64,000 nt of DNA, from the NCBI GenBank assembly GCA_964016885.1, contig OZ024742.1, positions 158,658,001-158,722,000 on the forward strand, read 5' to 3'. The notes under the pieces were generated by a model. It saw only the letters and a list, made by a program, of their open reading frames with translations. It ran no database searches and was not told the origin of the DNA. Below are positions 10,805-60,312 of the stretch, one piece after another. The stretch is from Eledone cirrhosa (Eukaryota). Numbering within the stretch: the first letter of the stretch is position 1; the number at the start of each line of letters is the position of its first letter. Both the position numbers and the translations under genes were made by a program.

Positions 10805-11614
10805 CATAAACCCGTACATATAAACCCGCACGCATTCACACACTGATGTAGGCAGAATTAATCATCCATTTTCATTTCTTTTGATATCGTGGAGGTATTT
10901 CATTCGATTGTTCCAACAATATTCCTTATTTAAGAAGATATAAATGTACTATATGATTGTATGCATATATGTATATCATTATACAAATGAAATCTGACAG
11001 ATTTCTAGTCGGTATAGTTGGTGCAGTGGTATATTGTTTCTATATGCCTGACTGATACCTACGAAGTGTAAATTTCAATTCTCCTTGAATGCATTATGTC
11101 ATAGCATACATACATGATATAGACACACACGAACACACATAAAAACACACTCTCGAGCATAAAGACAAACATACATATACACACAAATACACACATGTAC
11201 ATAACACTTTTCATAGAGATTTATGCAATTCTCATTCTGTCACCGTTTTTGTTGTTCATTGCTATATACGTATATATATTTCGTATTTCTTTAATATTTG
11301 CAAGATTCTTGGTGTGGAATCGTGTACGGAAACAGATAGTATTATACTCTGGAGGCTCAAGCTGTCAATAAAACTGAAACCACTAGATGGGTTTTTGATA
11401 ATTATTATATCTCTCGTGTGTATGAGACTACACATATAACAAAAAAGACAAAACGGAGTAAATAGAAAAAGGTCAAAACAAATAGTAAACACATAAGAAC
11501 ATGAATAGTCACTGAGGTCACAGAATGTGTGACGAAACAGATTTGGCAAATAAATTTTACATCAATCCGATTAACAAATTAATCGAGAAAGGAATTATTT
11601 ACTTGACTAATAAT

Positions 11615-11799
11615 TGTTTCTACTTTTGGCACAAGGCCAGCAATTATCCCAGTGTATTACTGGTACTTTATTTTATCGACCCCGTAAGGATGAAAGGCAA
11701 AGTTAACCTCGGCGGGATTTGAACTCAGTCCGTAAAGGGACGTAACTGTGCTGCAAAGCATGGCGTCCGACCCTCTACCGATCTGCCAATCCACCGCCC
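11615..11799 (-). mobile_element. tRNA-derived SINE with Nin/Deu-type core; 16-bp TSD
   Basis: Head GGCGGTGGATTGGCAG, box B GAGTTCAAATCC and core GCCTTTCATCCTTACGGGGTCGATAAAATAAAGTACCAG. TSD TTACTTGACTAATAAT at 11599 and 11800. Confidence 0.9.
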
Positions 11800-12029
11800 T
11801 TACTTGACTAATAATGATTTCTAGTATAGGCACAAGGCCATTACTTGACTAATAATAGTGTTGATATGAAATTCAAATGTCACGCGGGTGTTTATTGACA
11901 GCATGGTCCTCCCAATATATGATAATATATATATTTTTTGTGTATATTTATATATATATATGTGTGTGCGTGTGTCTGTGTATGTGTGAGTGTGTGTCTG
12001 TGTGTGTCGATTTGGTAGAGTCATTAGAG

Positions 12030-13875
12030 TAATGGATTAGGGTGTCTTCATCCTGAGAGCTAATCCTTTCGGTTTCGGTATAAAATAATACACCCCTAAT
12101 GAGCTGATGTAGCTTTTGGAAGTTGCTCGAGATATTGCAGTATTGACAGGCTTGAGTTACGAAATCTATGGAATCGGTCGATAGCAGGATCCTTCCTACA
12201 AGTGAAATTAGCTGTTGAACAAAATTCTACAGTGTGGGTGCAGAATGACTTCATCGCTCAGTGCACATCTCGAACAGGTCCATCTGACAGTACTTCTATA
12301 GAGTTTGTCTCGAACAGTCCCCACCCCTGATATCTCTACTAGGCCAGGGATTTCTGGAAATTGTCCATAGTCCGCTGGTCGAAATTTCTCCGGGAATAAA
12401 AACGGGTTAGATCATTCTGGTCAATGCTTAGAATTTCTCCGAGAACCTCAATGCTGTTGACCACTACTAGTCATCTATATAACGATGAAATGGAATTTCT
12501 GCTAACTGCATTTCCCAACTGGTTATGTGACTCGGACAACATTCTGGATGCCAGGCGCCCACTCTGGTTCTTCTCTTGGCCCAAGACTGCAGCTAAGTCA
12601 AAGAGACGAGCTATGGAAAAATGCGACTAACAAAGGGCGACCATACCTCTTCACCGTTTAGGAATATTTGCATATTCTGTAGCCTCAGTGCATGTTTGTG
12701 CATCATCAGCTACGGCATGAGCTGGGCCTCGGTAAAGAAACCAGACACTCTGTATAAAACGGCCCTTGTGTCAAGCATCCCTTTACGCTATAGAACAGCA
12801 TAGACGTGCTGAGTTGCAAACCGGATGATTTGTCCGTATTAATTCTTGCAGACGACAACCAATCATACTCAACTAAGAAATTGCCAGCCAGCTTGATTTC
12901 CGAGGTGTTTGAGGCCGCAAATACCGACGCAGCCTTCCACGTCCTGACTTAAGCATGATGCCCTTCAACAGCTCCAGAATCCAAAGTAGTGGCTCGAGAG
13001 TCAGCACATACTGAAGAGATCAGAGATAGCCGTATTGACAGGCCAAGTGGTAGATGTTGTGGTGGTGGTGGTGGTGATAATGAAATCATTTTTTGTATTT
13101 GTTAGGTTGGTCCATATTTTTTCTTTCTTAATTAGTTTCCATGCCTGGGCCAAACGTTCTTTCTTGTCTGAGATATCAACTTGAAACAATTGTCTTTTAT
13201 TGCAGCCGTGGCTGCGAATGAACTGTTGTTGTTGTCCGCTGATGTTGTTGTCCGGTGTTGTTGTTGTTGTTGTTGCTGTTGCTGGTGCTGGTGGTGTCAT
13301 CCGTCTTGTCGCCGTCGTTCTTCTTCTCTTTACCGGTGTTGTTGCCGTCGTTATTGCTGCTGTTGTAATTTTTGTTGTTGTTGCTGTTTTTTCTTTCACT
13401 TGTTTTGTTGTTACTGTTGCTTTTAGTACAGTCGTTGTTGACGCTGTTGATGCTGCTGCTGCTGCTGGTGGCGTTGTTGTCGTTGTTGCTTTCGTTTGTT
13501 TTGCTTTTGTTGTTGGTGCTGCTACTGTTGTTGTTGTTGTTGTTGTTGTTGTTTGCGATGCTGCCTAAAGGGATGGTAGTTTTCATAATAGTGGTGTCAT
13601 TCTTCTCAACGTTTGAGCCATTGTCCCGTGACAGCTGGTTAAACGTGAGGGGGCGTATTCCATCCATTTTTTTTGCCAGAAAAAAAGGGTTCAAATCATA
13701 AAGTTCAAATACTTGGGCCGAAGCCCCGAATATTATGGGTTCGCCTTTCATTAGAGCAATGAATGGCACCTTATATACAGTTCATAACAAAATATATTCA
13801 ACAAATTCCACTTTAAAGCAACTCAAAATAACCAACCTTCTGAAACCAATTTAAACACGTCCGTTGCAAATGAGA
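12030..13875 (-). mobile_element. Degenerate, internally deleted Tx1-like LINE (leader and Asn/Thr-rich ORF1 start joined to ORF2 C-terminus)
   Basis: MDNFQKSLA motif at ~12368 matches the Tx1 C-terminus elsewhere in the window. Low-complexity ORF 13197-13672 and leader architecture resemble 19956-20165. Confidence 0.7.
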
Positions 13876-13889
13876 AATATAATAATAAT

Positions 13890-14101
13890 GATTTCTGATT
13901 TAAGCATAAAGCCAACAATTTTGGGGGAAGGGGAAAGTCGATTAAATTGACCCTAATGCATTACTGGTACTTTATTTTATTGACCCTGTAACGAAGAAAG
14001 GCATAGTTAACCTCGCCGGGATTTGAACTCAGAACGTAAAGGGCCGTAACTCTTTGCTGCGAAGCATGGTGCCTGATGCTCTATCGATACCGCCAATCCA
14101 C
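13890..14101 (-). mobile_element. Nin/Deu-core SINE (longer variant)
   Basis: Same head, box B and core as 11615-11799. Tail ends AGAAATC(ATT)n. Confidence 0.85.
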
Positions 14102-14559
14102 TAATAAAAATGTGTCCTTCCATATTTCAAGACGGTTGCTAGAATTTTAGGTAGACCGTTGTTTTGCTTTGTTTTTTTTCTCGCAGGTGAAAAGAATACT
14201 TAGATTTTTCCATGTTGGCATATGAAATATCTATTTCATTCTATAGATCAATCAGCAACAAATAGATATGCCATATTTGATGAAACATTCCTTCCAAAAA
14301 AGCCATTACCTAAAACGTACCAATATTTCTACCACTCTTAGAAGCAGAATATAACGGATTTCTCTAAATGTATCTAGCTACTGATGAAGAAAGCTGACAG
14401 TTATATAAACGCTTGAAGCGATCAGCTATAGAGTCAGGTATAGAGAGGAAGTGTGCAAAAAAAAGGTGTCGCTGGAAAATATATAAAAATACAACCAGAA
14501 GAAAATCAACATGAAATTTTAGAAATATGTTTACAATATACATTATGTTGAAGTCCCAG

Positions 14560-14743
14560 GGCGGTGAATTGGCAGTATCGGTAGAGGGTTGGACGCCATG
14601 CTTTCTAGCATAGTTACGTCCCTTTACAGTATGAGTTAAAATCCCGCCGAGGTTAACTTTGCCTTTCATCCTTACGGGGTCGATAAAATAAAGTACCAGT
14701 AATGTACTGGGTAATTACTGGCCTTGTGCCTAAAGTAGAAACA
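14560..14743 (+). mobile_element. Nin/Deu-core SINE with 18-bp TSD
   Basis: Box A TGGCAGTATCGG. TSD ATTATGTTGAAGTCCCAG at 14542 and 14744. Confidence 0.92.
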
Positions 14744-15253
14744 ATTATGTTGAAGTCCCAGTAATGCAATAATGTAGAAAAATCTGAAATATTTCACGAA
14801 CAAGCTATTCAAACAAACAATAAATCTATGCCACACGAATCAAAAGAAAAATTAGAGATATCTAGGGATAACCTGAAAATCCATTTAAGCTTTTTTTAAA
14901 CAAGTGAAAATATTTAGATATTTTATTTCAAGAAAGAAAGGTAGATAGGTGGATGGGTAGATAGATAGACAGATAGGTAGATAGATAGATATGTTTCTTT
15001 TATTTGCCACCAGGGCATCAAAAGTGGGACAAGTACAATGGGGGGAGTTTACAAAACAAGGCGTCCTCAATAAGGAGGAGGAAATAGCAAAATATAAAAA
15101 TAAAATAAAATATAACAGAATAAAATTTATAACAAAATCCTCAATAGAGAGGAGGCGCCTTGGGGGGTCGCACACAACGCCGAAAAAAGTATGCAACCCT
15201 TTTCCTCAGGAGCACAGAGAAGGGGTGCTCCCTTGGACTTTCATCTTCCTCAC

Positions 15254-18019
15254 CTATAGTCTGATATAGAGTGAAGGCCCATTCACACGGGCCATTCTCG
15301 CCACTTTCACCCACCTTTCATAAAAACGACTGGGGTGCAGCACCTCTCTCTCCATCCTGATCCTTCTTCCGAAATGATATCGGAAGAAACGGACCAGTTG
15401 TTGGCCAGAGAGAAAGGTGTCTGACCTCAGTCCTTTCAGACGCGTCCACCATACAACCTCTTTCGCCATGGCTATTACGCACAGAAACACCGCCTCTCCT
15501 TCGTTTTTGAAGAGGGGAGGCGGCTTGATCGTTACAATAGACTCGGTGGTCAACCGGATCGGTCCCACCCTTGAGAGCCCCACAGTTCGACATAGCCCCA
15601 CATATCAGCAATGCCCGAGCAGTGTACCATTGCGTGTGCAACGGTTTCCTCGTCGCACACGCATCTGGGACAGATCTTTTTCGAGGGGTCCCTACCCGGG
15701 CGCCCGTGTCTGTAGAGACTTTCTCGAACGGGCAGAGCCCTTCTGTAGCACTGCCAGGCTAGGGACCTCTGGAAGTTATCCATGGGTCCCGGGCTGAATG
15801 TCCTACCGAACAGGCTGGCCAGTTCGTCTTCCTCCATGCCTAGGGCTCCTCCGAGGGCGTCGTCGCACCTGCTAACCACCAGCCCTCTATAGAATGACGA
15901 GGTGGATTCTCCACTGACAGTCGGGTCCGCCTGCCAGAGAGCCGTGAGCGCCTGGGCACACTCGGTGTGCCAGGCGCCTAGTTTTTTCGGTCTTTGCTTG
16001 ACCCAGGATTGCAGCTCGGTGAGTGAGACGAGTCTGGGAAAGGCTCGCCTCACAAACGGGGCCCACACCGGTTGACCGAAGAGGAATACCTGGAGGTGCC
16101 GTAGCCTTAATGCGTGTTTACGTATCATTAGCCACGGCCTCCCCAGCCCTCCTTTCGAAGGGTGTTGACAGCAGATGGATCTCCTCACCATAGGATCCCG
16201 CTTCTTCCAAAGGAATTGGAAGAGTGCGCGCTCCATTTTGGCGAGCGTTTCCCTTTGGCAAGGCACAACGGTCAGGCGGTAATAGATGACGGACGCTATA
16301 TAAGTGTTCGCCACCTCCGCCCGACCTTTCAGGGACAGTTTGCACTCGGCCCACTTCTGGGTCAGTGCAAACACCCTGTTCGTTACCTCACCCCAGTTCT
16401 TCTCCACCTGGAGGTCTGGTCCGAACCAGACCCCGAGCAACTTCACCGGGCCCTCCGTCCAGCGCCCGACGACGCCATCGGAGGGCATCGATCTGCCCCT
16501 CCACGTGCCGAGTTGCAGACCGATCGACTTGTCCCGGTTCAGCTAAGCCCCTGTAAACCTTTCGTACTCCTCCAGTAAGGTGCCGATCGCCCCGATTTCC
16601 GAGGCCGTAGACACCATTACTGTTACGTCGTCAGCGTAGGCCGACACCGCTTTCCGCAATCCCAGTTCCAACGGGATGCCCTGCAACAACTCCAACTTCC
16701 GCAACAGTGGCTCTAGAGTCATTACATACAGAAGGGAGGCAGAACTCGGCGTCCGTGTTCGAGAGACGCGGCAAGCTGTCGAGGTATGAACTAAAGTCCA
16801 TTGCCCCGGCCGGCTCACCGTCGTTCTGCTCAAACAGTCGCGCAAAGTAATGCTGAAAGGTCGAGCACATTCGTTTGGGGTCAAGTAGCACGCGTCCGTT
16901 TTGGTCTTTCAAAGACTGAATCGTTGACTTGTTGCCACTATTTGCCTCCGCCACTCGGGCCCAGCTGACAGATTTCGCTCCTTCGTTTCCTAGAGCACGT
17001 GTTTTGCTTCTGACCATGCAGCTTTCGTGTTTCGCGTCGAAGAACTGGTCTAGTGCCGTTCTCGACGCTAACACTCTAGCCGCGTTGCCACTTCTAAGTG
17101 CTTCCTCTACCTTGGCTACTAGTTCTCTTTCTATTTTGTTTTTCTCTAAGGCTAACTCTCTGCTAAACTCTATCGATTCTACTCTAATTGCTTTCTTGAG
17201 AGAGTACCACCATCTATTGTTGACGATGGCTCCCGTTAACTGTTGCTTGACTAGTCTACTTATCCGTTCACTGTAAGCTTTACGTGCCGGTAACGACACG
17301 TTCAGCTTCCAGTATCCGGATCCCTGTCTATCTATTCTATCAAGGTTGACTAAGCAGACGACTAATTCGTGATCTGAGTAGGCAACCATGTGCATTCGTG
17401 GACAGCTTAACATCTCCTTATCCCTTTCTCTAATGAAGATCCTATCTAGATGTCCCGCTGCGGTTTGCCTACGTCCACTGTGGTGCAGTCGGAAAATTCA
17501 GTCGATACCTATCGGCCAGTTGGAATTAGCCGATTAAAGTTTTGAGGCTGTTGCACCCCCTCTACTAAGACATGCTCCCACATAGTCCCATCGTGCATCT
17601 AGGATACCATTCCAGTTCCCCACTAAAAGTAAGGAGCGAGATGTTCCCATGTCTGGCTGTGATTGCGATTGCTCGGTCGGGGCATAAACGGCCACCAGTC
17701 TGAAAGCTCCACCTTCTATACTGTTCACGTCTAGGACTACCAGTCTACCCTCCCGGTCCAAGTGTACTTGCTGTACTTCGACGTTCAGGTTCTTCCGAAA
17801 CATGACAGCCACTCTCCCTCCACCTCCTGGCTGACAGAGAGATGCGTAGATCTCAAAGTCGTCGAAGATGATGGTTAGTTGCTGCCTGTTGTGGATCCTG
17901 GACTCGGTGATGGCTATCACATCCATACCATGTGACCTAAGGTCGTTTAAAAGTTGGTCCTGTTTCCAGGGCATCCCTAGGCCACGCCCATTCACGCTTC
18001 CAATTCGTAAACTAGCCAT
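15254..18019 (-). pseudogene. Tx1 ORF2 (APE endonuclease, RT, zinc-binding), frameshifted, with most of the RT core deleted near 16745
   Basis: MASLRIGSVNGRGL, AITES, VYAP, LVGNWN, YSDH, YWKLN, AYADD, LLGVWF, CPRC..ETVAHAMVHC. Confidence 0.9.
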
Positions 18020-18061
18020 GTTGGTGAAGAAGAGTTGGAGAAAAAGGACGAAAAGGTGCAC

Positions 18062-19586
18062 TTACCTTTTCGTTTCCGGGAGATCGGGTTGTTCAATCTC
18101 CATTTGGGTGCTGGAGGGGGTGTTGGGTGGGGTGGGGAAACCTTTTAACAGGACGCGGTTGGTGGGTTTCTGGCAGAGGTTGCCCACGTCTTGCAAAAAT
18201 TTATTTTTCAGATCACTATAGGTCTCCATAGAAACCCTTATAAGTTTAAGGTGTGTAGACGATTCTGCTTTGACGAAAGTTTTGCCTTCCGTCTCCACCT
18301 TGGGGTTTTGGGAGATGACCTCCATCAAACTCTTGTTGTTTCTGTTGATGTATGCGTATTATTGTTTGTGTTTTTGTTGTGTTGTTTTAGTTTATTGTTC
18401 GTCCGGGAGTTTTCTTTTTATGGTGGGTGCCTGTGTTTGGGGTTGTGTTAGTGTTGGTGTTGGTTTTGCTGGTATGGGGATGTTTGACTGTGGTGTTGTT
18501 TGTGTTGTTGTTTGTGTTTGTGGTTGTGTGTTGTTGGTGATTGGAGTTTCGGGGGTTTTGTTTTTTAGATTTCCGAGGCTCTCCTTTTTCTTCACTTAAA
18601 GAAGGGGAAGCAGCCTCATCTGTCGATGAATAATCATCGTCAGGAGTGTGGGGTAGTGGTATGGTGTGTGGTGGTGATGTTTCGGTGTGTGTTTTTGTGG
18701 TAGTGCTTGATGGAGTGGGATGGGGTGGGCTGTGTTCTTCAGGGGTGTTGTCTGTGTTTTTTCTGTTGTTGTTGTTTGAGTGGCTGTTTGTTTTGGTGTG
18801 TTTGCTCGTTTCGTCTTTTGTTGTACTTTTGGTGGTGGTTGTTTTGGTGTTGGCAATAGTGTTTTTTTAATGATGTTGTTGTGGTGCGTTTGTGAAGGAC
18901 AGGAGGCCTTTAGGTGTGCTGTGCTACCACAGCCAAAGCAATGAAGTTTTCGTCCCTCCACCGTAATGTTTATTTTGTTGTTGATGACTTTTTCGGGTAT
19001 TTTGGAGATTCTCTCCGGCCTCATTTGAATCAGAATCTCCAAATCAGTACTCGCCCACCTTTGTCTAGTAGACTTTGGTATCGAAAGAATCATATCAGTC
19101 TCTGGCTCTACGAAGCCAGCCAAGATCCACCAGATGTTAATGTTTGGTGGTATATTTTTTTTTTTTTTTGTCCTTTTTCCCATGTACGTAGGGAAAAAGT
19201 TGAATGCTTTTGACACCATTGGTGTCACAGAATGTTTTGGGCGAGTGCCTCGCTTTTAAACAGTACGGAAAAACTTCCGTACTGTTTTCCTCGTTGGAGA
19301 AAGTCAATATTTTCTAGAGTCTCCTTGAAGGTGGCTTCTATATCTGCTTGACTAACAAATATCGGCTTTCTCGTTGTGTTGGAGACAGTCCTAAAGGTCA
19401 CTGTCCTTCGAACTGTCTCTTCTTTTATTTCGAGGGGTGAGTTAATTCTAAACCCTCCCTTGTCTTCGAAAGTTACAAATTTCCACCCTTGCTGGAGCAT
19501 ATCTCTTGCATTGGAAATGTCAAGATTTATAAAATCTTGTTTTTTGTTCACTGTTTCAGCGAAAGACATTTTTTGTGTGATGTTGC

Positions 19587-19623
<37 letters not shown>

Positions 19624-19956
19624 ATCTTTGTTAGCCTCGGTGTTGGAAATCTCAATTTCTTGACGAGGTGAAACTTTATGTGTAGATGTATCTATGGAGT
19701 TGATGATGTTGTCTTTTTCATATGTATGTATGTTAATAGGTTTAGTTCCTGTGTTTTGCTGTGTGTTATTGTTATTTTTCTCCGCTTCGACGGTAGAAAT
19801 TTTTAAATCTTCAAGTGGTAATATTTATTTCTCTTTGTTGACAGTCGTATCTATGGCGACGTCCATAGTACCAGAAGCAGATATAACGTTAATATCTGCC
19901 GCTCTACCTCTCTTCTCTCTGTCGACGTTCTCTAGCGTTCTTTCCGAGCTATTCAT
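18062..19956 (-). pseudogene. Tx1 ORF1 (RRM-like segment, CCHC zinc knuckle, Thr/Pro/Lys-rich tail), disrupted
   Basis: CFGCGSTAHLKASC knuckle; ORF pieces at 19225-19569, 18596-19228 and 18062-18328; ATG at 19956. Confidence 0.8.
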
Positions 19957-20165
19957 GTTTAATAGTTGGCAAAATTTGATATTTTAAAACAATTTTTTAA
20001 TTAAATGTTCGCCCCTAAAGGGGCGAAAAATCGGTTTACCACCCAGCTGACAATTCAGCTTGGGGGTTAACCTACAAAATGTAATTTTTTTTCAAACAAT
20101 TAGTTCCATTTTTTTTGCATAGAAATTAACAAAAAAGCTTACCGCCGATGTTCCACGCGTCAGGC

Positions 20166-21474: not shown

Positions 21475-22501
21475 ATATTTTTATTGCGTGTCATTACTGA
21501 GAAAAGCCCTGTGTGCCTTGGGTGTGTGCAATGTAACATAGGTGTTTATTTCTGTTGTATTAAAAGTATTCTCCGTAAGATGTGTACACTTCCTAACAGT
21601 GTTATTTCCTGTATGTTGTAAGTAGTTGGTCCCGAGATTTCGGTTATGTATCTGCCTGTGTGTCTCTTATCATTCCCCACCTGTTATTATGGGAGGTGTT
21701 TCTCTTTTCATCATCAAAATGCGGCTTCTTTTTATATTTATATCTTTATATTTGGATAATTTCACCATTTCCTCATACATTGTCATCTGCGGAGATATAT
21801 ACATCAATAAGAGGATACTTTATCTTTGTGGTATTTGACCTTAGCCGGTCGTTTGGTTTTGGTCTCTCTGTCTGTGTGTATTAGCATATACCTTAGTATG
21901 GCTGCTTTGTTATTCTCTCACACCTTCTCTTGTGTATGTTTGTACCATCTTTTTTCTGTTGGTATTTCGAAGTGTTGTCATAATATCTAGTTTGTTTAAA
22001 TCCCAAACATGTCTGGATATATTATTTTATGGCTACGACTAGGCAACCAGAGACAATGTGGTTAATTGATTCTTCCCCAGTACAACATATTCTACAATTA
22101 CTTATTGTTCTGTTTCATTGTGTATTTTTGGCGCTTCCTGCTGGGGTGACTTTGATCTTGTGCTGCAATTAGAAATCCATCTGTCTCGACACATATTCCA
22201 GTGCTTCTTTACCAGTTTTCTGAATTTTGTTTCTTCACTTCCTCCTTTACTTCAGCTTTTTCGGGTATTGGCCATGTAGGGATTTTCTCGTCATCATTCC
22301 AGCATAGCATTCTAGAGATATATTTCCAATTTAGATTTGAACATTTTCGCAGTTTCTGTTGCCGTTTCGTCTGTGTTTTCATTTTCCTCATAATCATCTG
22401 TCAATTCAACTTCTGCTTTGAATTTGTTGGCTTTGTAGAAGATTGAAAACAATCAATTGTTTTGTTGTTTTTTTATTTCATGTTTCATGGCTATTATTTT
22501 A

Positions 22502-22690
22502 GGGCGGAAGATTGGCAGTATCGGTAGAGTGTCGGACGCCATGCTTTGCAGCATAAAGTTACGTCCCTTTACGGTCTGAGTTCAAATCCCGCCGAGGTTA
22601 ACTTTGCCTTTCATCCTTACGGGGTCGATAAAATAAAGGACTAGTAATACACTGGGATAATTGCTGGCCTTGTGCCAAAAGTAGAAACAG
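22502..22690 (+). mobile_element. Nin/Deu-core SINE nested in the old R4 copy
   Basis: Near-identical to 14560-14743; flanked by TTATTTT. Confidence 0.9.
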
Positions 22691-22774
22691 TTATTTTTCA
22701 TTAATTTTTGTATTCCTCCTGCGATCGTGGTAGGTATAATCCTTTTACATCTGATTTGAAAGCTGAAGCAGAAA

Positions 22775-30419: not shown

Positions 30420-33400
30420 CCCAGCCATTAACATTCCTTCTGTAGCCTTTTTAAGGTCTACTCTTTTCAATCAGTTCCATGTCTGTGGATCTCTGAATTC
30501 AGTTTTATCAATTCCTTCATTTTATTGTTCTTGATGTCATCAGCCTCCAGAACACCCAAATACTTGTATCCTTCTTCAGTGTCAATTTTCTTTATCATCT
30601 CACCTGTTGGTACCTGGATTCCGTTGCTTCTTCTCAATTTACCCCCTCTTCATCACAAGGACTCCACACTTACTAATACCAAATTGCATACATATATCAT
30701 TGCTGAAAATACGGACAGTGTCAACAAGCACATCCAACTCCTTGTCACTCTTCCCGAAGAGCTTAAGATCGTCCATGAAGAGGAGGTGATTGATGGTAAG
30801 CTCTCCCTTTCCCAACTTGTATCCTGCTCTCACTTTTCGCAGTATAATGGTCAGGGGAATCAGGGCAAGGACAAACAACAGAGGGGACAGACTATCTCCC
30901 TGGAAGATACCTCTCTTGATCTTCACGCCTCCCAAGGATTCTCCAGCTGATGTAAACTCTGTTTTCCAGGACTTCATACTTTTGCCCAACAACTGTCTGA
31001 TGTTATCTGCCACCCTGAAGATCTCTAGGCTTTCGGTGATTCAAGAATGAGGTACCATGTCGAATGCTTTTTTGTAGTCTATCCATCCCATGGCAAGACC
31101 AGTGTGTCTCCTCCTGCAATTCCTCATTACCATCTTATCAATAAGTAACTGGTCCTTTGTACCACGGGACTTCTTTCGGCATCCTTTCTGTTCGTCCGGT
31201 AACAAGCTGTTTGTGTGCAGGTGATGGAAGATTTCCTCAGACACAATGCTTGTCAACAGTTTCCACATTACGGACAGACATATGATAGGTCTATAGTTGG
31301 TAACATCATTACCCTTGATTCGGACTTTCATTACCAGAACAGTGGTACCTTTTGTCAACCACTATGGTACCTCACCTGACATCAAGCAGTCATTGAACAT
31401 CGTTGTCAGTTTCGGGTGGAGGGATGTTATATTTTTAATCAAATAATCTGGGCCTGGTGATTTCCAGTTGGTTAGTTTTTTGGCCTGCCCCTTAAGAGTT
31501 TCAACTGTGATACTCAAATCAGTTTGTTGGTGTGTTTGTTCACTAATCTCCTTTTGTACTGTCTCAATCCACTCTGCCTGGTCATTATGTTTAACATCCT
31601 GCTCCCATATTCCTCTCCAGAATGTCTTAGTTTGTTCCGCCTCAGGGATTAAGTCGTTGCCTCTTTCTTTCCCTTCAAGCAGTCCAAACAACATCTGGTT
31701 GTTGTCAAACAGTCAGTTCTGTCTATACTGACTGACTCTGCTCTCGTATCGCCTAATTTTTACACTCTTTGCTACAATGCGTTGCTTCAGTTCCTCTATG
31801 ATAATATTTAGCTTTGTCCTCCTTGTTTTGTACTTTATTTCCAGTCTATTTTTAGTGTCTATGTTTTTTAGTGTCCCATTCAGTAGGGACTCAAGCTTTC
31901 CAATGTCATTTATCATTTCCCTGATTTGACCATTCAGTCGTTTCTTCCACCAAGGTTCTGATCTTTCTTGTTTGTTGTTTCCTCTCGATTATGGGATGAC
32001 TTTGTTTACCTTATCTGTTGTTTCTTTTAACTTTTTCCTGTCTACAAATCTTAGGTTCATAGGTTTCCCACTATCATTGTTCATTTCATCTACCACTAAG
32101 TTTAGGATATCAACCAACTCTTGTCCTAGCCCGTCAGCATTCATCTCCTCAATGGCCGTATCTCTGTCCCAGGTATTATTTATTTCAGCATTCAGATCAT
32201 TGTCTGCTTCGGATGGTTCCTCCGCTCCCTCAACCTCTTCACCTTCATTTCCCACTGGCTCGTTTGCCTGGCATACACCACTCTCCATTTCCAACCTAAT
32301 CTCTCTGCTCAGTTCCTCCAGTTCCAGCTCGCTTATCCACCCATTAGTTCTTATTACCCGAGCCTGCCCGGCCAATTTTTGTTCATCTAATTTAAATAGA
32401 CCAATCTCGTTCCAGATGTTATGCATCCGTTTCCTATAGCCTTTTTCCTTGGTGTTACTCTTCAAGTAACATTGCATAACAGTTCTATTCAATTCTTTTG
32501 TCCAGTTGGTTCTGGTCCCTTTCCTTCTTCTTCCTCCGACACCAGCAGTATTTGGTTGACAGCCAGGTCCCTGCTGCTGAGCCAGGGAGCACCTGCTGGG
32601 TGAGAGTCTGTCACATGACATTCCAGTCTCCACTTCACCGTTATTCGAACTGTTTAGGTTCGACATTTAAACACTCTTATCGAGGATTGGTGAATGTATG
32701 TTTACATAACCACCGGTGATTTCATCACCCCCGGTGATTTTAGTTTGGTACTATCACGCTGTAGACTAACATAAATAAACAAACAAACAAATAGGTATCC
32801 CCCCACCCCCCACCCCACAAAAAAAGAATAAGCATAAGTTTCATTGTAGTGTAATCTTTGAATGTCTGACTTAGTTTTTTTTCTTTTCTTGTCTGTCTGT
32901 CTGTTTGCTTTTCTTTTCTTGTTTTCTTTACGTTTTTCGTTGCTGCTGTGCTGTTTTGATTTTGATTTTTGTTTTTTTTATTTTTTGACCGGGTCATCAA
33001 TTCAGTCTATTTATATCTTTTGATGCCTTCCTCATTTAGTGGGAATACTACGATGTGAGGCAGTGGTGGTGGTTGTGATGTGCTAGTAGTACTTAGCAGG
33101 AGGTAGTGGGAGAGAATAGCGGCGGTAGCGATAATGAGGCAGCGGTGAAGGTGATGTGATCGTAGTACTGTAGTGATGGTGTTGAAGTTGAAGTAGAAAT
33201 AGAAGTTAAGGTAGAAATAGAAGTTAAGTGGTGATGTTGGTGGTGAAATTATTTGCCTGTCTGTCCACTTAGCCATTTTTCTCTTTTTCGACTATAACAT
33301 TTCTGATCCAAAATTAAATATTAAATATTGGGGCCCTATGCCGTAATGTGATGCGTAGTGGCTTGCTGAGAGTCAAAACTGTAATCTTATACTTCATTTG

Positions 33401-33486
33401 TAATAAGAATTATTCTTTCACTGTTGGTTTAAATAAGTAAAAATCAAAAACTTACGGGAGCGATTCCATAACGATATATATCCACC
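30420..33486 (-). mobile_element. R4/Dong LINE with intact 5' end, 3' part lost and internal deletions
   Basis: ORF pieces 30639-32666 match the 692-aa ORF at 40981-43059; 5' end follows TAATAA. Confidence 0.92.
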
Positions 33487-33493
33487 TTATTAT

Positions 33494-36400
33494 GACATCC
33501 TCTTGGAAACACCCATGACCAGCGAAAGGGACGGATCTACTGTCCCTTCACCACACGATCAAGGTAAGTGACCCTTTCTCGCTTGCCCTGTTTCTCATCC
33601 AACATGGCCGTACTCAGAATAGGCAGTATAAATGCACGTGGCCTGGGGTCATCTTGGAAGCAGGGTCACCAGCTCAACGACCTCAGGTCACTAAACATAG
33701 ATGTGGTGGCCATCAGTGAGACCAGAATCTCTGAAGAACAAGCCTTCGCACCGATCTTCGGCGGCTACGATGTATACGCATCTCCCAGCCGTCCAGAATC
33801 GGGGGAGGGGTTGCCGTCCTTTTTTGGAGAGGCTTGGATCTCGCGATACGGGCCATCTTCCTAGAACCAGAAGGTAAGTCGGTGGTGCTGGACGTGACCG
33901 GCAGCGAAGGCAATGCTTTCAGGCTAGTAGCCGTCTACGCTCCAGCAGGGGCAGGACGGCCAGATTTCTTCAGACGTCTAGAGACCTTTCTTGGAACGTC
34001 CCGCTCTTTAGTGTTAGTGGGCGACTGGAACGGTATCGTGGATGCACGCTGGGATTGTGTGGGGCTAGTGGATATGGGAGGAGGGTGCAAGAGCCTCACC
34101 AACCTGCTCAGACCTTTTTAACTGTCTGACAGGTATCGACTGGATCACCCGAATGTGCCAATGTGGACATGGACAAACCGTATCGGGTCATCCAGATCGT
34201 ATCTCGATAGGGTATTCTTCAGAGAACTAGATAAGGCTAGTATAAGTTGTCCACAATTTAAAATAGTCGACTACACAGACCACAATTGTGTGATCTGTGA
34301 GATCGACATAGACAGACTTCATAGACAAGTGCCTGGTTACTGGAAGCTGAACGCGTCTTTCTCGGCGCGCAAAGCCTACAGAGACCGAATTAGCGTATTA
34401 GTTAAGCGGGCGTTGACGGGAGCGGTCGTCAATCACAGGTGGGGATTCGCCCTGAAAAGGGCAATTAAAGTAGAGTCGATTAGGTTTAGCAAAGGAGTAG
34501 TGATAGAGGAAAATAGAGTAGAGGGAGAGCTAGTCAGAAAGCTAGAAGAGGCGTTTAGGACAGGCATCGCAACCTACGTACTTGCGGCGAGATTGGCACT
34601 CGACCAATTCCTCAACGCAAAACACGAAGGCTGAGTTGTCAGAGCTAGAGCTCATGCTCTGAAATACGAGGGGACAAAAGCCGTCCAATGGGCCCGGGTG
34701 GCAGAGGCGCGACGTGGCAACAAAGCCAAAATTCGATCTTTGTCTGACCAAAACGGGTGCGTGATGCTCGAATCTGAGCGGATGTGTGAAGCTTTTCACC
34801 AGCACTTTGCTGAACTGTTCGGGAGCAGCGGCGGTCCGGATCGGGGCTGGACTTCAGTGCATACCTCGACGGACTGCCTCGGCTCTCGACGACCGCAGCA
34901 CAGTGTTGCGAAAAGCTAATAACAGCCGGTGAAATACGGTAAGCGATGGCTAACTGCACAAGGGGTAAATCGCCAGGTTTGGATGGTCTGCCCTACGAGC
35001 TTTATGCATTTATGCCAGACTTGTTCGGTAACCTCTTGGCAGACGTCTACAACTGGCAGCAGAACGGGAGCATTCCCAGTTTTGTGAGCCAGGGAGCAGT
35101 GGCGCTGCTGAGAAAAGACCCGAACAAGGGGGATGTTATCGATAAGTTCAGGCCCATAACCCTGCTAAACGCAGAGTTCAAGATTTTGGCCAAGGTGTTA
35201 GCAACGAGGTTGGCGCTTGTCGTCAAGGGTCTGGTGGGAGAGGCGCAGACATGCACCATTCCGGACAGATCCATACACGACAACCTCCACCTCATGCGAT
35301 ACATCATAGAGAGGTTGGTTAAGGAACCTGGAACGGGTTGGGCCCTAATCAACTTGGATCAATCCAAAGCATTCGATAGGGTCGACCATCGGTACCTGGC
35401 GGCGGTCCTCGAGGCAGCCGGTTTCGGGCCCGTTTTCAGGGGTTGGATCGCAACAATGTACAGCGACATCTGCTCAGTTGTGAGGGTGAACGGTCACCTT
35501 TCGCAGCCGTTCAGCATCATGCGCTCAGTCCGCCAGGGTTGTCCCCTCTCGTCCCTCTTGTACGTATTGGCTCTCGAGCCGTTACTGCACACACTGGGGG
35601 CGATGAGAGGCGTCCCACGCGAACTAGGATGCGGGAAATCCGAGTCGGCTTGCGCCGACGACGTCACCGTGGTGGTGTCGAACACCAGACACGTCCAGAT
35701 CCTCGGCACCGCTCTCAAGGAATACGAAGCGGTGACAGGAACAAAGGTAAACCAGTAAAAGTCGGTGGGCTTGCAGCTCGGCACCTGGAGAGGCAAGTCC
35801 ATGCCATCCGACAGCGTCGTGGGGCGTTGGACGGACGGACCGGTTAAATTGCATGGGGTCTGGTTCGGACCGGACCTCCAGATGGAGAAAAACTGGAACG
35901 AGGTGACGAGCAGGGTGGCCTCCCTCACCCAGAAATGGGCCGAGAGGAAACTGTCCCTGAAAGGCCGTGCGGAGGTGACGAATGCGTACATCGCATCCGT
36001 CATCTGCTAGCGCCTCACCGTCGTCCCTTGCTCCAGCCCAACTATCACCAAAATGGAGCGCCTCCTCTTCCGCTTTTTGTGGAAGGGACGCGCTCCCATG
36101 GTCAGACGATCCATCTCCTGTCAACACCCGTTGCGTGGAGGACTTGGCATGCCATGGCTGATGATGCGCAAACATGTACTGAGGCTGCGACATCTCTGGT
36201 GCTTCCTTGACGGTAAACAGGTGTGGTCGCAGTTCGCCAGGCACGTTTTCCCACAGCTCGTCTCCTTGACGGAACTGAAGTCCTGGGTCAGAAAAAGACC
36301 GAGGAATAGCGCTTGGAAACTGGAATGTCTCCAGGCGCTCACTGCCCTCTGCCAGCTGGGCACCAGTATCGGTGGAACATCCACCTCGGCGTTCTATAGA

Positions 36401-37368: not shown

Positions 37369-37550
37369 GGCGACCTACGTAGGAAATCGTATCATCGTGA
37401 GCTCCGCAAAGGTTTGTTGTTTTCGTTTGTTTAAAATTGCCATATATGGAAAATTTTTGTTGTTAACTATTTATAAGGTCACAAAATTTGCTTTCGGAAA
37501 AGGACACTCAAAAAGATTGGGGACTTGAGCCCAAAATTTAAATTCTTATA
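37369..37550 (+). mobile_element. Orphan LINE 5' leader between two ATT tracts
   Basis: Same layout as the leaders at 13700-13875 and 19960-20165: short GC-richer start, GT..AG segment 37412-37477, then GC-rich motif GAGCCCAAAATTT. Confidence 0.55.
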
Positions 37551-37580
37551 ATTATTACTAAAGTTATTATTATTATTATT

Positions 37581-39674: not shown

Positions 39675-42600
39675 TCAGATATTCAGGACGTATCGGAGGG
39701 TTCTTGCCGTTCCAAGCAAGCATGCCTTTTGAAGCGTTCCAAAAAGCGTGAAGGGGCCGGCCGATTTTCTTTAACCATCCCTGGAAACCTTTGGAGATAG
39801 TCCCCAGTGTGCCTATGACAATCGGGATCACTTTGACTTCATGGCAGTTCCAAATCCTTTTCACCTCCCACTTTAGGTCCTGGTATCTCCCTCTCCTTCT
39901 CTTGCACTCTCGTGTCGAACTGGCAGGCCACATCCACAATCAGGCACGATCTTTTTTCTTTGTCCACAACCACCAGGTCAGGTCTATTGTGTTCCAGTTT
40001 TTTGTCCGTCTGTATCCTAAAATCCCACAGCACCTTCACCTGACTGTTCTCCATCACCGCCTCTGGCCTATGCTCATACCATTTCTCAGAATGTGGTAGA
40101 TTGTTTACTTTGCACAGGTGCCAGTGGATCACCCTGCCCATCACATCGTGTCTCCAGCCCTTATAGTGGGTCTGGGCTAGGTGTTTACACTCGGACACAA
40201 TGTGGGGCACAGTCTCCTCTCTCTCTCCACAGATCCTGCACAGTGGGCTAGCCTCCTCCTTGTAGATATGGTGCTTCAACCACTTCGTTTTGAGGGCCTG
40301 CTCCTGCGCAGCCATTAGCATTCCTTCTGTAGCCTTTTTGAGGTCTCCTCTTCTCAACCAGTTCCATGTCTGTGGATCTCTAAATTCAGTTTTCTCAAAG
40401 AAGGTACTATGAAGGGATTTTCCCTTAAGGCTGCTCTTCCTCCTTGATGTTATTTCCTCCTTGGATATCCCCTGGCCTACTGTCCCCTCCTTCAGTACAG
40501 CTCTGAGCATTGGCTCCTTACTATAGGTCACGTATTTGTATAGGTTGTTTTTCTCCATCTGAACACAGTCCTCTATGCTGATAAGACCTCTTCCACCCTC
40601 AGATCTCCTTAGGTAGAGTCTATCGACATCACTCCTCTTGTGGAACATGTTGTAGATAGTCAATAGCTTCCTAGTCTTCCTATCCATTTCTTTTTGTTCA
40701 GCAACATTCCATCTCAGAATTCCCGCACTGTACCTAATAATAGACACAGCTCGGGAATTTACTGCGCTTATGGCATTTCTGCTGTTCAGATGTGACTTCA
40801 ATACGCTCCTTACTCTCCGAATGTATTCAGTTCTTAACAATTCCTTCATTTTTTTGTTCTTTATGCCATCAGCCTCCAGAACGCCCAAATACTTGTATCC
40901 TTCCTCAGAGTCAATTTCCTTTATCATCTCACCTGTTGGTATCTGGATCCCGTTACTTCTGCTCAACCTACCCCTCCTCATCACAATGACTCCACATTTA
41001 CCAATACCAAACTGCATACATATATCACTGCTGAAAATACGGACAGTGTCAACAAGCACATCCAACTCCTTCTCACTTTTCCCGAAGAGCTTAAGATCGT
41101 CCATGAAGTGGAGGTGATTGATGGTAAGCTCTCCCCTTCCCACTTGTATCCTGCTCTCACTTTTCGCAGCATAATGGTCAAGGGCATCAGGGCAAGGACA
41201 AACAACAGAGGGGACAGGCTATCTCCCTGGAAGATACCTCTCTTGATCTTCACGCTTCCCAAGGATACTCCAGTTGATGTCAACTCTGTCTCCCAGGACC
41301 CCATACTCCTGCCCAGCAACTGTCTGATGTTATCTGCCACCCTGAAGATCTCCAGGCTTTTGGTGATCCAAGAATGAGGCACCATGTCAAATGCCTTTCT
41401 GTAGTCTATCCATCCCATGGCAAGATCAGTGTGTCTCCTCCTGCAATTCCTCATTACCATCTTATCAATAAGCAACTGGTCCTTTGTACCACGTGACTTC
41501 TTTCGGCATCCTTTCTGTTCGTCCGGTAACAAGTTGTTTGTGTGGAGGTGATGGTAGATTTCCTCAGACACAATGCTCGTCAACAGTTTCCACATTACGG
41601 GCAGACATGTGATAGGTCTATAGTTGGTAACATCATTACCCTTGCTTCGGTCTTTCATTATCAGAACTGTGGTACCTTTTGTCAACCACTCTGGCACCTC
41701 ACCCGACACCAAGCAGTCATTGAACATGGCCGTCAGCTTCGGGTGGAGGGATGTTAAATGTTTAATCCAATACCCCTGCACACCATCTGGGCCTGGTGAT
41801 TTCCAGTTGGTTAGTTTTTTGGCTTGCCCCTTAAGAGTTTCAACTGTGATACTCAAATCAGTCTGTTGCTGTGCCTGCTCACCGATCTCCCTCTGTACTG
41901 TCTCAATCCACCCTGCCTGGGCATTGTGTCTAACATCCTGCTCCCATATTCCTCTCCAGAATGTTTTAGCTTGTTCCGCCCCAGGGATCAAGTCGTTGCC
42001 TCTTTCTTTCCCCTCAAGCTGTCCAAACAGCATCTTCTGGTTGTTGTCGAACATGCGGTTCTGTTTATACTGACTGACTCTGTTCTCGTATCGCCTGATT
42101 TTGGCACTCTTTGCTACAATGCGTTGCTTCAATTCCTCTATGATAATATTTAGCTTTTTACTCCTAGTTTTGTATTTTATTTCCAGTCTATTTTTAGTGC
42201 CTATGTTTTTTAGTGTCCCATTCAGTAGTGACTCAAGCTTTCCTATGTCATTTCTCATTTCCCCGATTTGCCCACTCAGTCGCTTCTTCCACCACGGCTC
42301 TGCTCTTTCTTGTCTGTTGTTTCCTCTCGCTTTTATACCAAGTAGTTTCCTCACCGTATTTGCTGTTGCTTTGAGGATATTGTTGCACTGGTGAAGACTC
42401 CTCGCCTCAAGGTATGGGATGACTTTGTTTACCTTAGCTGTTGTTTCTTTTAACTTTTTCCTGTCTACAAATCTTAGGTTCATAGGTCTCCCACTATCAT
42501 TGTTCAACTCATCTACCACTAAATTTAGGATGTCAACCGAATCTTGTCCTAGCCCGTCAGCATTCATCTCCTCAGTGGCCGTATCTCTGTTCCAGGTATT

Positions 42601-43092
42601 ATTTATCTCAGTATTCAGATCATTGTCTGCTTCGGGTGGTTCCTCCGTTCTCAGGACCTCCTCACCTTCATTTCCCGCCGGCTCGCTTGTCTGGCATACT
42701 ACACCCGCCATCTCCAAGCCATTCTCTCTGCTCAGTTCCTCCAGTTCCAGCTCGCTTATCCACCCATTAGTTCTTATTACCCGAGCCTGCCCGGCCAATT
42801 TTTGTTCATCTAATTTAAATAAACCAATCTCGTTCCAGATGTTATGCATCCGTCTCCTGTAGCCCCTCTCCTTGGGGTTACTTTTCAGGTAGCATTGCAT
42901 AACAGTTCTATTCAATTCTTTCGTCCAGTTGGTTCTGGCCCCTTTCCTTCTTCTTCTTCCTCCAACATCAGCAGTATTTGGTTGACAGTCAGGTTCCTGC
43001 TGCTGAGCCAGGGGGCACCTGTTGGGTGAGAGTCTGTCACATGACGTTCTAGTCTCCATTTCACCGTTATTCGAACTGTTTATGTTCGATAT
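39675..43092 (-). pseudogene. R4/Dong polyprotein (RT, CCHC zinc finger, PD-(D/E)xK restriction-like endonuclease) with few lesions
   Basis: 692-aa and 434-aa ORFs joined by a frameshift near 41140. Start ATG is mutated to ATA at 43092; small deletion near 39890. Confidence 0.93.
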
Positions 43093-43424
43093 TTAAACAC
43101 TCTTATCGAGGATTGGCGAACGTATGTTTACATAGCCATCTGTGGATCCGCCATCCCACTTGGCCCTTGTGTGGCATTATCACCACGCTGTATACGGACA
43201 CACATAAACAAACAAACACACGGGCAGAAAGGGCCCCAAAAATGAATAAGCATAAGTTTCATTGTAATGTAGTATTCGAATGTCTGACTTAGTTTTTGTT
43301 TTTTAAGTTTTACTTTTTCCCCCCTCTTCTCTGTCCGTCCGCCTGCTTCTCTCTTCATTCTTATTTTCTTTACGTTTTTGGGATTTCTTTTTTTGTTTTT
43401 GTTTTTCTCTGTTTGTTTTTCTCG

Positions 43425-43660: not shown

Positions 43661-44313
43661 CCGTATTACTGTAGTGATGGTGCTGTAGCGGTGGCAGCAG
43701 CAGTGAAGGAGTCAAGGGGTGGTGGCGGCGGTGATGGGATAGTGGTGGTAATGATGGCCGTAGTGAGCGGTGGCGGTGAAGGTGAAAATGCTGTTGTGTT
43801 TAGTGTACACAGATGAAGGGGTGGGTGGTGTATCTAGTTTCTGGTGTTGGTGAGTTTAGCTGTCCTATATAGTGTAGCCAGAGGAGAGGAGGGGGGGGGG
43901 GGGGGGGTTCTTCTTCTTCCATTTATAGCCATTTTATTTTTTTTGGATATACAGTGTACAATACAAAGTTGAATATTTGAATATTTGAGCCGTATTACTG
44001 TAGTGATGGTGCTGTAGCGGTGGCAGCAGCAGTGAAGGAGTCAAGGGGTGGTGGCGGCGGTGATGGGATAGTGGTGGTAATGATGGCCGTAGTGAGCGGT
44101 GGCGGTGAAGGTGAAAATGCTGTTGTGTTTAGTGTACACAGATGATGGGGTGGGTGGTGTATCTAGTTTCTGGTATTGGTGAGTTTAGCTGTCCTATATA
44201 GTGTAGCCAGAGGAGAGGAGGGGGGGTTCTTCTTCTTCCATTTATAGCCATTTTTTTTTTTTTTTTTGGATATACAGTGTACAATACAAAGTTGAATATT
44301 TGAATATTTGAGC
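43661..44313. repeat. ~325-bp tandem duplication in the R4/Dong 5' region
   Basis: CCGTATTACTGTAGTGATGG starts at both 43661 and 43990; the units are nearly identical. Confidence 0.92.
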
Positions 44314-44479
44314 CTTATAACAATATATTTTGGGTCCGAATTTTTTGGGGCTCAAGCCGGGTGCTTTACGTAGCATTTGTACTAAGAGTTGTTATTTCAC
44401 AAATGATTTAAATATGTTAAAAATTCAAAACTTACGGAAGCGATTTCATGACCTCCGTCACCTCGTGCGTCTTCTTCCC

Positions 44480-57523: not shown

Positions 57524-57718
57524 ACATCAGTCTGTCGGATGGATCACGTAATGGAATAATAGAATAATAGAATATATAATAGAATATATATATATATATA
57601 CTGTGTACATATATATATATAAATGAAGTAATTCCGCCGGAAAAGTCCAGGAAAAAAGAGTGCTCTATGTAGGTAACAGAGCTTAATAGTTATGTAATAA
57701 ACAACATAAGGCAATTAT

Positions 57719-57777
57719 TCCATTTACCAGTGGTTTCTTGAAAAGCAAAAATTTTTGCTTTCAATCCTCAGAATGAA
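57719..57777 (-). ncRNA. Type-I hammerhead ribozyme (family H1)
   Basis: TTCATT-CTGAGGA-TTGAAAGCAAAA/TTTTGCTTTTCAA-GAAA-CCACTGG-TA-AATGGA; GUA triplet. Confidence 0.88.
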
Positions 57778-57924
57778 AAAATCCTGGTCTCTTTATTGAA
57801 TTTGGATTTTAAAAACAAAAATGCAATCTATATGAAAGTGAGTCTGGAGAAAGAAGAAGGAAAGGAAAAATAAAATAAAACCACACATGCAAACATACAT
57901 ACAAACACACACGCACGCACACAA

Positions 57925-57991
<67 letters not shown>

Positions 57992-58122
57992 GATAAATCT
58001 ACCAAGAGTTTACGGTAGTGTCCAATCCGTATGAAGAACTCGATGTAATCCGGATATCATGGAAAGAAGAGATGCAATGAAAAATCACTTTCGGTGAAAG
58101 ATAAACGGAAAACAGAGTCAAG

Positions 58123-58456
58123 ATAAAATATTAAAAAAATAATGAATAAAACAATGAAGCAGTTCCTTATATTAAACAAAAAAAGTTCATTATTTAACGA
58201 TCGTTTCTAGGATATATATGTGTTAGAATTGGCATGCATATTCAACAGATCTATGTACAAATTTATACAAACTATCAAAATTAAATATACATACCAAACA
58301 CATATAGTTTGTATAATTTTGTATAAATTTGTACATAGATCTGTTGAATATGCATGCCAATTCTAACACATATATATCCTAGAAACGATCGTTAAATAAT
58401 GAACTTTTTTTGTTTAATATAAGGAACTGCTTCATTGTTTTATTCATTATTTTTTA

Positions 58457-58465
<9 letters not shown>
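58123..58465. repeat. Near-perfect foldback (~148-bp arms, ~45-nt loop)
   Basis: 58123-58271 is the reverse complement of 58317-58465. Confidence 0.92.
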
Positions 58466-58500
<35 letters not shown>

Positions 58501-58667
58501 CATACACTCACACATACACACACACATATATACACACATATGTGTATATAAATACACACATACACATACACACATACATACATACGCACATAAATATCAA
58601 CACATCCATACATACACATACATATATACAACCACACACACATATATACACACATATATATACACAG

Positions 58668-58740
<73 letters not shown>

Positions 58741-59118
58741 CACACACACATGCATACACAAACATAGCCATACACACATACATATAGATACATACATACA
58801 TGCAAACAATCATACCTATATACACACGTACATACATACACATACATAAATGCGTACATGTACATGTACAAAATTAGCATACGCAAATAAATATAAGAAA
58901 AAATATATATATATAAAAAAATAAAATAATAATAAAGATTATTATAGAGTTGACAGCGATACAAACGACTGGTAGATGAACAGACACGCGTGAAGTAAAT
59001 ACATACACACACTCTCACACATAAATATACATATACAAATACATAAACACATACATACACATACACAAATACATACACAAACACACACACGTATACAATT
59101 ATACACACACATATACAC

Positions 59119-59151
<33 letters not shown>

Positions 59152-59422
59152 AAAATACACACACACACACATACACACACATATATATGTATACATACAC
59201 ACACACACATACATACATAGCTATACAATTATACACATACAAATACGTACATATCATAAACACGCACAATCAAATACAAACACACACACACACATACATA
59301 TATATGTATACATATACATATATATATGTGTGTGTGTGTAAAACTCAATCTTAGATAATTCATATGAACCTTACATATACATATATATAGTAGTAAAGTA
59401 ATAAGCAACATAAGGCAATTAT

Positions 59423-59481
59423 TCCAATCACCAGTGGTTTCTTAAAAGCAAAAAAATGTTGCCTTCAATCGTCAGAATGAA
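59423..59481 (-). ncRNA. Degenerate H1 hammerhead (GUG triplet, probably inactive)
   Basis: TTCATT-CTGACGA-stem II-GAAA-CCACTGG-TG-ATTGGA. Confidence 0.6.
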
Positions 59482-59515
59482 AAAAAATCCGGTCTATCTA
59501 CATATACATATATAT

Positions 59516-59554
<39 letters not shown>

Positions 59555-59851: not shown

Positions 59852-59892
<41 letters not shown>

Positions 59893-60280: not shown

Positions 60281-60312
<32 letters not shown>

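Follow-up and report, generated by a model that had tools for sequence, protein, structure and literature searches.

A homologous 5' leader on Tx1-type and Dong/R4-type LINEs of Eledone cirrhosa and its donor-like site, a candidate for U1 binding without splicing

Introduction

The 5' untranslated region (UTR) of the human long interspersed nuclear element (LINE) L1 contains a splice donor, G98U99, which is rarely used and is linked to spliced integrated retrotransposed elements (SpIREs), with spliced genomic copies amounting to about 2% (PMC5860796; this and all other papers are cited for those of their parts that were available to us). In Penelope of Drosophila virilis, a 75-bp 5' UTR intron overlaps the internal promoter (PMC8557442). 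Leaders can also move between elements: co-existing mouse L1 families have recruited new 5' UTRs (PMC3600994), and in the Drosophila hybrid R2/R1 short internally deleted elements (SIDEs), a 5' module is joined to a clade with another type of endonuclease (PMC3414825). Here, we analysed a stretch of 64,000 nt from Eledone cirrhosa (assembly GCA_964016885.1, contig OZ024742.1, positions 158,658,001 to 158,722,000, forward strand), referred to below as the window, which is a nest of LINE copies, each inserted into the microsatellite tails of others. Four of its LINE leaders are versions of the same 5' module, which sits on two types of LINE with different endonucleases and contains a donor-like site that may bind U1 without being spliced.

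Results

Two protein types are encoded in the window. Tx1-type elements have two open reading frames (ORFs), with an apurinic endonuclease (APE), a reverse transcriptase (RT) and a C-terminal zinc finger in ORF2. Dong/R4-type elements have a single long ORF with an RT match, no APE match, a restriction-like endonuclease (RLE) motif that was read by eye, and (TAA)n flanks. Between the two types, RT identity is 25-28%. The RT matches of the Dong/R4-type elements are unnamed RT clusters, and Tx1 and R4/Dong, in part the labels of an earlier reading of the window made from the sequence only, are the clades to which we take them to belong. Five leaders were studied, named E1 (donor at 20142), E2 (13836), E3 (37412), R4a (44435) and R4b (33455). 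All five are members of repeat families in the 3.0-Gb genome. A first look gave 1,976 candidates for E3 and 1,586 for R4a, which are not copy numbers, and the family counts below rest, for each leader, on the 25-30 best among 40 scored places.

The leaders E2, E3, R4a and R4b are one homologous 5' module of about 215 nt, carried by both APE- and RLE-type elements. Leader pairs were aligned and each was scored against 200 dinucleotide shuffles. Five of the six module pairs reach z scores of 7-19, namely R4a-R4b (18.6), E2-E3 (13.1, in a colinear alignment), E2-R4b (9.0), E2-R4a (7.7) and E3-R4b (7.0), and E3-R4a is weak (2.2). For E1, homology was undetected, with a z score of at most 2.3 against any other leader and 79 of 300 shuffles scoring equally on the module profile. 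The order of parts in E1 is the same as in the module, and the distance from the donor to the ATG is 184 nt, compared with 168-179 nt in the module leaders. The sequence-only reading had described three leaders with little primary similarity; judged by the shuffle scores this is right for the one at 20142 (E1) and wrong for those at 13836 and 37412 (E2 and E3).

Further lineages were found in flanking DNA with a profile of the window leaders. Between donor and hairpin, the alignment of the eight lineage sequences has hardly any gaps, at 37-85% identity. The module lies at the 5' boundary of the elements with fixed motif spacing, the precision of this boundary being biased by the choice of copies for their 5'-end likeness. 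No common RNA fold was found across the eight lineages (alifold energy 0.0; z scores of the individual folds -4.4 to +1.7). A ribozyme resembling that of hepatitis delta virus or an internal ribosome entry site was considered and discarded, as there was no shared fold and Rfam gave no match to the leaders or to the UTR of R4c, a Dong family described below. In E2 and in the lineage L110 (L110:2451-2650), the ATG is preceded by a hairpin that consists of a 12-bp inverted repeat, with one compensatory pair change; in the Dong leaders this hairpin is broken. At L048:740-1320, a piece of the E2 leader of about 61 nt, which extends from around TATATAAG up to CCCCATAATAT, has been amplified to a tandem array of about ten units.

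The leaders E2 and E3 continue into Tx1 ORF1 and APE. The E3 copy in the window, which had been presented as the leader of an element at 37412, turned out to be a leader-only fragment abutting a 5'-truncated Tx1 copy. In most of the copies taken, a low-complexity stretch of 0.5-1 kb, whose upstream ORFs (uORFs) are all short, lies between the R4a or R4b leader and the Dong ORF; the uORFs opened by the Dong leader ATG have only 3-98 codons. A third Dong family, R4c, is represented by two copies (L193 and L195), which are 97% alike over 4 kb. Its leader is 80% identical to that of R4a, whereas the proteins share 33% identity over 674 amino acids, and its UTR contains the 3' tail of a common short interspersed nuclear element (SINE) at +861 to about +915, just upstream of R4c's own 5' region. 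The SINE tail and an R4a-like leader on a divergent protein are signs that upstream sequence of the nest was captured. We infer that the transfer went from Tx1 to Dong, because the Dong elements carry the leader ATG and decayed Thr/Pro-rich sequence and because L074, a single copy, has a Dong-like leader running into an E2-like ORF1 start.

Several further observations concern these attached leaders. At 11 of 85 loci (L072, L078, L084, L104, L128, L130, L132, L137, L138, L140 and L144), a single (ATT)n/(TAA)n tract lies between an E3 and a Dong leader, which are placed head to head at a distance of 43-188 nt and form a potential divergent promoter pair. About half of the R4a copies have a tandem duplication of approximately 330 nt (window 43661-44321, minus strand), which repeats the last 60 nt of the leader and the ATG. 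The Dong ORF starts with TAA-ATG in R4b (32666, minus strand) and with TAA-ATA in R4a (43090, minus strand), the next in-frame codon being GTG in R4b and ATG in R4a, and two small conserved hairpins flank this start. A GC-rich, probably structured segment without an Rfam match is located directly upstream of the R4c ORF (L195:6090-6240). The tail of the abundant (ATT)n SINE, the one trapped in the R4c UTR, is also a frequent landing site for E2-type elements.

Donor-like sites were scored against the donor consensus, with seven variable positions. In eight of nine leaders, the site located 168-184 nt upstream of the ATG is the best or joint-best one, and its GT (a slash marks the putative junction in the motifs below) is kept in 29/30 E1, 24/30 E2 and 29/30 E3 copies. 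It occurs in two registers. Tx1 lineages have AAG/GTTGGT, AAG/GTTTGT or AAG/GTTCGT, with a constant +5G and +6T and a variable +4, and Dong leaders and E1 have CCC/GTAAG or CCG/GTAAG, that of the Dong leaders lying about 4 nt further upstream in the alignment. The motif CC/GTAAGT is found at 33455 and 44435 as previously noted, but the donor position thought to be common to Tx1 and Dong leaders is not, since the AAG/GT of Tx1 is aligned with the 3' GT of the Dong GTAAGT rather than with its 5' GT. An equally good donor falls into the same 10-nt slot in 1.3-2.2% of shuffled leaders, the slot having been picked after the fact. As the lineages are related, these probabilities cannot be multiplied, and together with the overall shuffle rates (see Discussion) this makes the conservation of the donor moderate evidence.

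A second site of this kind is present at the end of ORF1 in Tx1-type elements. The spacer between ORF1 and ORF2 follows the pattern G/GTRAGT, a pyrimidine tract of 25-35 nt, as a rule without AG, and CAAC-ATG. Among 32 junctions that were not selected for donor changes, 27 have G/GTRAGT, three have lost it by deletion, one has GC and one T/GTAAGT. The site contains the ORF1 stop codon in E1, E3 and L252 and encodes Gly-Lys or Gly-Glu, followed by the stop, in L165, L198 and L208; its presence in two reading frames indicates that the constraint acts on nucleotides. One Tx1 subfamily has GTGAGT, the exchange between A and G at +3 being seen only at the level of lineages. In L171 (L171:1517-1560), a deletion of 128 nt runs from this donor to TTAG/GTCAC in ORF2; it is one base off an exact splice, and we take it for a probable microhomology deletion rather than a splice product.

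The acceptor side gives a different picture. The sequence-only reading had proposed a conserved intron of 66-71 nt in divergent leaders, and the motifs on which it was built are all present: GT 20142/AG 20072 (71 nt), GT 13836/AG 13770 (67 nt by coordinates) and GT 37412/AG 37477 (66 nt). The intron itself is not supported, as four of the five leaders have a common origin, their acceptor is poor and missing from one lineage, and the genomic probes described below revealed no copy without the segment. On the shared module, AAG stands in place of YAG behind a stretch with 6-11 pyrimidines in 17 positions, the AG is lost in R4c (TAAAC in 2/2 copies), and a competing AG lies 6-18 nt upstream of the acceptor in R4a, R4b and L110. 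E2 has the AG in 22/30 copies, and E3 has AAG/GT in 21/30. In E1, TAG is kept in 29/30 copies, with 8/17 pyrimidines and ACTAAT in 20/30; the AG/GT acceptor at 20072 is the window's own variant (1/30 copies), AG/AT being found in 28/30. With TTTTGTAG and CTAAT, E1 would be the best candidate acceptor of the set, and because its family is young, conservation of the branch and acceptor says little.

A search for copies that precisely lack the segment, which had been suggested as a check, was run on the whole genome with exact-flank probes for the E1, R4a and E3 families (short forms of E2, R4b and R4c fall outside the probes), and shortened copies numbered 0 for E1, against 163 intact ones, 0 for R4a and 0 for E3. 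In 129 leader copies, which had been chosen by likeness to intact ones, the interval is shortened by at most a few bases (E1, E3, R4) or about 10 (E2). Genome-wide, the Dong leader donor and the acceptor-like site ahead of the Dong ORF are joined in 0 copies. Of 47 E1-type copies selected because the base following the ORF1-end AAG is altered, 0 are joined to a 3' acceptor, junctions starting with AT, CT, TT or GTA being outside the probes. Three contig sets from one sample, of unknown kind and given no weight on splicing, contained 0 joints fitting the proposed introns of E1 and E3.

Discussion

By analogy with the systems discussed below, we propose, with a probability of about one half, that the leader of approximately 215 nt is a mobile internal promoter with predicted unpaired U1 sites, which remains unspliced in the RNA that is copied. 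The module would serve as internal promoter and translation leader of Tx1- and Dong/R4-type LINEs, and its donor-like site is predicted to bind U1 snRNP (small nuclear ribonucleoprotein) without being spliced in the copied RNA. Both donors would be U1 landing sites, each followed by U-rich tracts, and U1 near the start and at the end of ORF1 could protect an intronless, A/U-rich transcript of 5-6 kb from early slowing and premature cleavage. We further propose that good acceptors are absent because splicing would remove promoter sequence from the copied RNA, so that their absence would keep the promoter within it. Dong elements may have taken the leader from a Tx1 5' end lying upstream in the microsatellite nest, and a second Dong family may later have taken it from the first one. 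It is tempting, but distinctly more tentative, to see here a portable promoter cassette that crossed the boundary between the APE and RLE superfamilies as well as, on repeated occasions, boundaries between families, and whose acceptor-less U1 decoys evade early-termination surveillance as if the element were a spliced gene. The homology and the capture are much firmer than the part concerning U1, which is argued by analogy.

The analogy is drawn from systems in which a 5' splice site aids full-length transcription apart from splicing. Attenuation by Restrictor/Su(s) is blocked by a 5' splice site (PMC12211998), and U1 prevents premature termination of unspliced RNA of the Arabidopsis Ty1/copia element EVD (PMC5580714), although the cases in these reports are host mRNAs and a long terminal repeat (LTR) element whose intron is spliced, and protection of Tx1 or R4 is not shown in them. 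In L1, mutation of the 5' UTR donor reduced the RNA about 5-fold (PMC5860796). Evasion of the human silencing hub (HUSH) was rejected as an explanation, since protection there is independent of the 5' splice site (PMC8770142).

A number of observations weigh against a U1 function of the leader. Each leader donor matches just 5 of the 7 variable consensus positions, an equally good site occurs somewhere in 23-46% of shuffled leaders, and sites of this grade are found 7-13 times on the sense strand and 8-12 times on the antisense strand of an element; E3 has a further perfect donor site within ORF2. In L074, a single copy, the homologous place reads ATAAGT, which a CpG-type change could explain. 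The supposed acceptor AAG/GT resembles a donor (4-5 of 7), as would also be expected of a DNA-binding motif that occurs twice, and the 0/163 result bounds spliced copies to below about 2%, the level in human L1 (PMC5860796), so that splicing at a low rate may still occur. The conservation of the L1 donor was ascribed by its authors to an overlapping RUNX3 site (PMC5860796), and in human cells intact 5' splice motifs can retain RNA in the nucleus (PMC11629677).

Promoter elements that act as DNA, namely AA(G)GTT, ATAA(G) and TTTAAA in a fixed spacing, and whose likeness to splice sites is accidental would account for spacing that is held without a shared RNA fold, for the AAGGT found twice, 66 nt apart, in Tx1 leaders and for the TATA-like TATATAAG, and RUNX3 in L1 sets the precedent (PMC5860796). 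We nevertheless regard this explanation as unlikely, because two separate registers each restore the U1 match and because the same consensus returns at the end of ORF1, 2 kb downstream, where it is read in two frames and the +3 exchange of A and G is seen only at lineage level. Slightly less likely still is a short intron retained as in Penelope-like elements, that is, one of 54-77 nt in the 5' UTR which is spliced from the translated RNA while the unspliced RNA is copied. The conserved donor, an AG 66-72 nt downstream in seven of the eight lineages with a donor at that place, and the majority sequence of E1, in which CTAAT stands near -30 and is followed by TTTTGTAG without an intervening AG, are in its favour, as is the promoter-overlapping Penelope intron (PMC8557442). 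Set against these are the AAG at -3, the poor pyrimidine tract, the missing AG of R4c, the competing AGs of R4a, R4b and L110, and the loss of the branch T in 7/30 E1 copies. LINE proteins as a rule use their own encoding RNA as template, yet the probes found no segment-less copies in the E1, R4a and E3 families, and such an intron leaves the acceptor-less donor at the ORF1 end unexplained.

We consider it improbable, and more so than either of these explanations, that long-range splicing produces subgenomic mRNAs, with the Dong donor joined to an acceptor before the ORF, which would drop the upstream ATGs, and the Tx1 ORF1-end donor used to remove ORF2, leaving an mRNA with ORF1 alone. R4a and R4b have both kept the sequence (GTTT)n..TACAG/CGTG, whereas the uORFs that begin at the leader ATG are all short, TTTTACACGCAG is found in E3-type 3' UTRs (11 of 28 3' UTR matches), and copia offers a precedent (PMC5580714). 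R4c has no such acceptor and E1-type 3' UTRs no CAG, however, and neither the Dong junction nor, within the range of the probes, that of the altered E1-type copies was seen in the genome. Taken together, the observations are best matched by what the sequence-only reading had held in reserve, namely that the segment is an internal promoter or binds U1, whereas an intron with a spliced translated RNA is not supported.

Like human L1, the elements described here have a conserved promoter-proximal donor in a LINE leader, and L1 RNA is mostly unspliced and reduced when the donor is mutated. L1 has real acceptors and spliced copies, however (PMC5860796), of which none were found here, and it is one lineage, whereas the leader described here occurs in two superfamilies, and in Tx1 the end of ORF1 carries a further donor. 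The earlier statement that retained introns are known from Penelope-like elements and not from Tx1 or R4 is incomplete in this respect, as L1 keeps its rarely used 5' UTR donor (PMC5860796). The size, place and promoter overlap of the Penelope intron correspond to the model first put forward for the window, but its splicing has been demonstrated (PMC8557442), whereas here acceptor conservation fails and the leaders are known from sequence alone. As in mouse L1, leaders were replaced or exchanged among co-existing families; that exchange took place within L1 (PMC3600994) and this one between APE-type and RLE-type elements. In joining a 5' module to a clade with another endonuclease type, the leader resembles the R2/R1 SIDEs, which are non-autonomous, rare and equipped with a ribozyme module (PMC3414825), while the elements here are coding, high-copy and without a ribozyme match. 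In the literature searched (which did not extend to Repbase entries, most subscription papers and supplements), no report of this leader, of the Tx1 ORF1-end donor or of leader exchange between coding APE and RLE families was found, and the available parts of PMC9115989, PMC13282606, PMC11203168 and PMC7175516 contain nothing on LINE leaders or their introns.

If correct, the proposed mechanism would show a route by which intronless retroelements escape promoter-proximal termination, and would mean that RLE elements can gain transcriptional autonomy via the captured leader of another superfamily. The system lends itself to testing, as R4a has many near-identical copies and the two natural donor registers are ready controls. 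For annotation, families built from 5' ends will be mislabelled by shared leaders.

Features of the window

Table 1. Leaders, donor-like and acceptor-like sites and coding regions, in window coordinates.
Feature	Coordinates	Strand	Remarks
E1 leader of a full-length Tx1-type element, (TCTA)n boundary to ORF1 ATG	19954..20165	-	module-like layout, homology undetected
E1 donor-like site, family majority CCG/GTAAGC	20137..20145	-	GT 29/30 copies, GTAAG 26/30
E1 branch-like ACTAAT and TTTTGTAG	20072..20103	-	ACTAAT 20/30, ACAAAT 7/30, AG 29/30 copies
E1 hairpin, 10-bp GC core, about 55 nt upstream of ORF1 ATG	20008..20029	-	
E1 ORF1/ORF2 spacer: AAG/GTAAGT (contains ORF1 stop), pyrimidine tract without AG, ORF2 ATG	18017..18068	-	
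E1 Tx1-type body, frameshifted: ORF1, APE endonuclease, zf-RVT end	15270..19956 (approximate ends)	-	
E2 leader, older Tx1-type family	13665..13876	-	shared module
E2 leader parts: donor-like AAG/GTTGGT at 13836, TATATAAG ending 13770, hairpin, A-run, ATG		-	
E3 leader fragment, Tx1-type family	37369..37555	+	shared module; AAG/GTTTGT at 37412, TTTATAAG ending 37477
R4a leader, young Dong/R4-type family	44249..44479	-	shared module; CC/GTAAGT at 44435
R4b leader, sister Dong/R4-type family, slightly 5'-clipped	33274..33490	-	CC/GTAAGT at 33455
R4a acceptor-like (GTTT)n..TACAG/CGTG, about 100 nt upstream of Dong ORF	43188..43220	-	
R4b counterpart of acceptor-like (GTTT)n..TACAG/CGTG	32759..32795	-	
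ORF1/ORF2 spacer in a 5'-truncated Tx1-type copy: AAG/GTAAGT, pyrimidine tract, ATG	33561..33606	+	
Dong/R4-type ORF downstream of R4a leader, one frameshift: RT and, read by eye at the C terminus, zinc knuckle and restriction-like nuclease motif	39839..43092	-	

Besides the LINEs, the window contains copies of the abundant SINE ending in (ATT)n at 11609-11840, 13880-14101, 14558-14748 and 22501-22695. Positions 57600-63200 form a long stretch rich in (AT/ATAC), in which several inverted repeats of 190-810 nt are nested.

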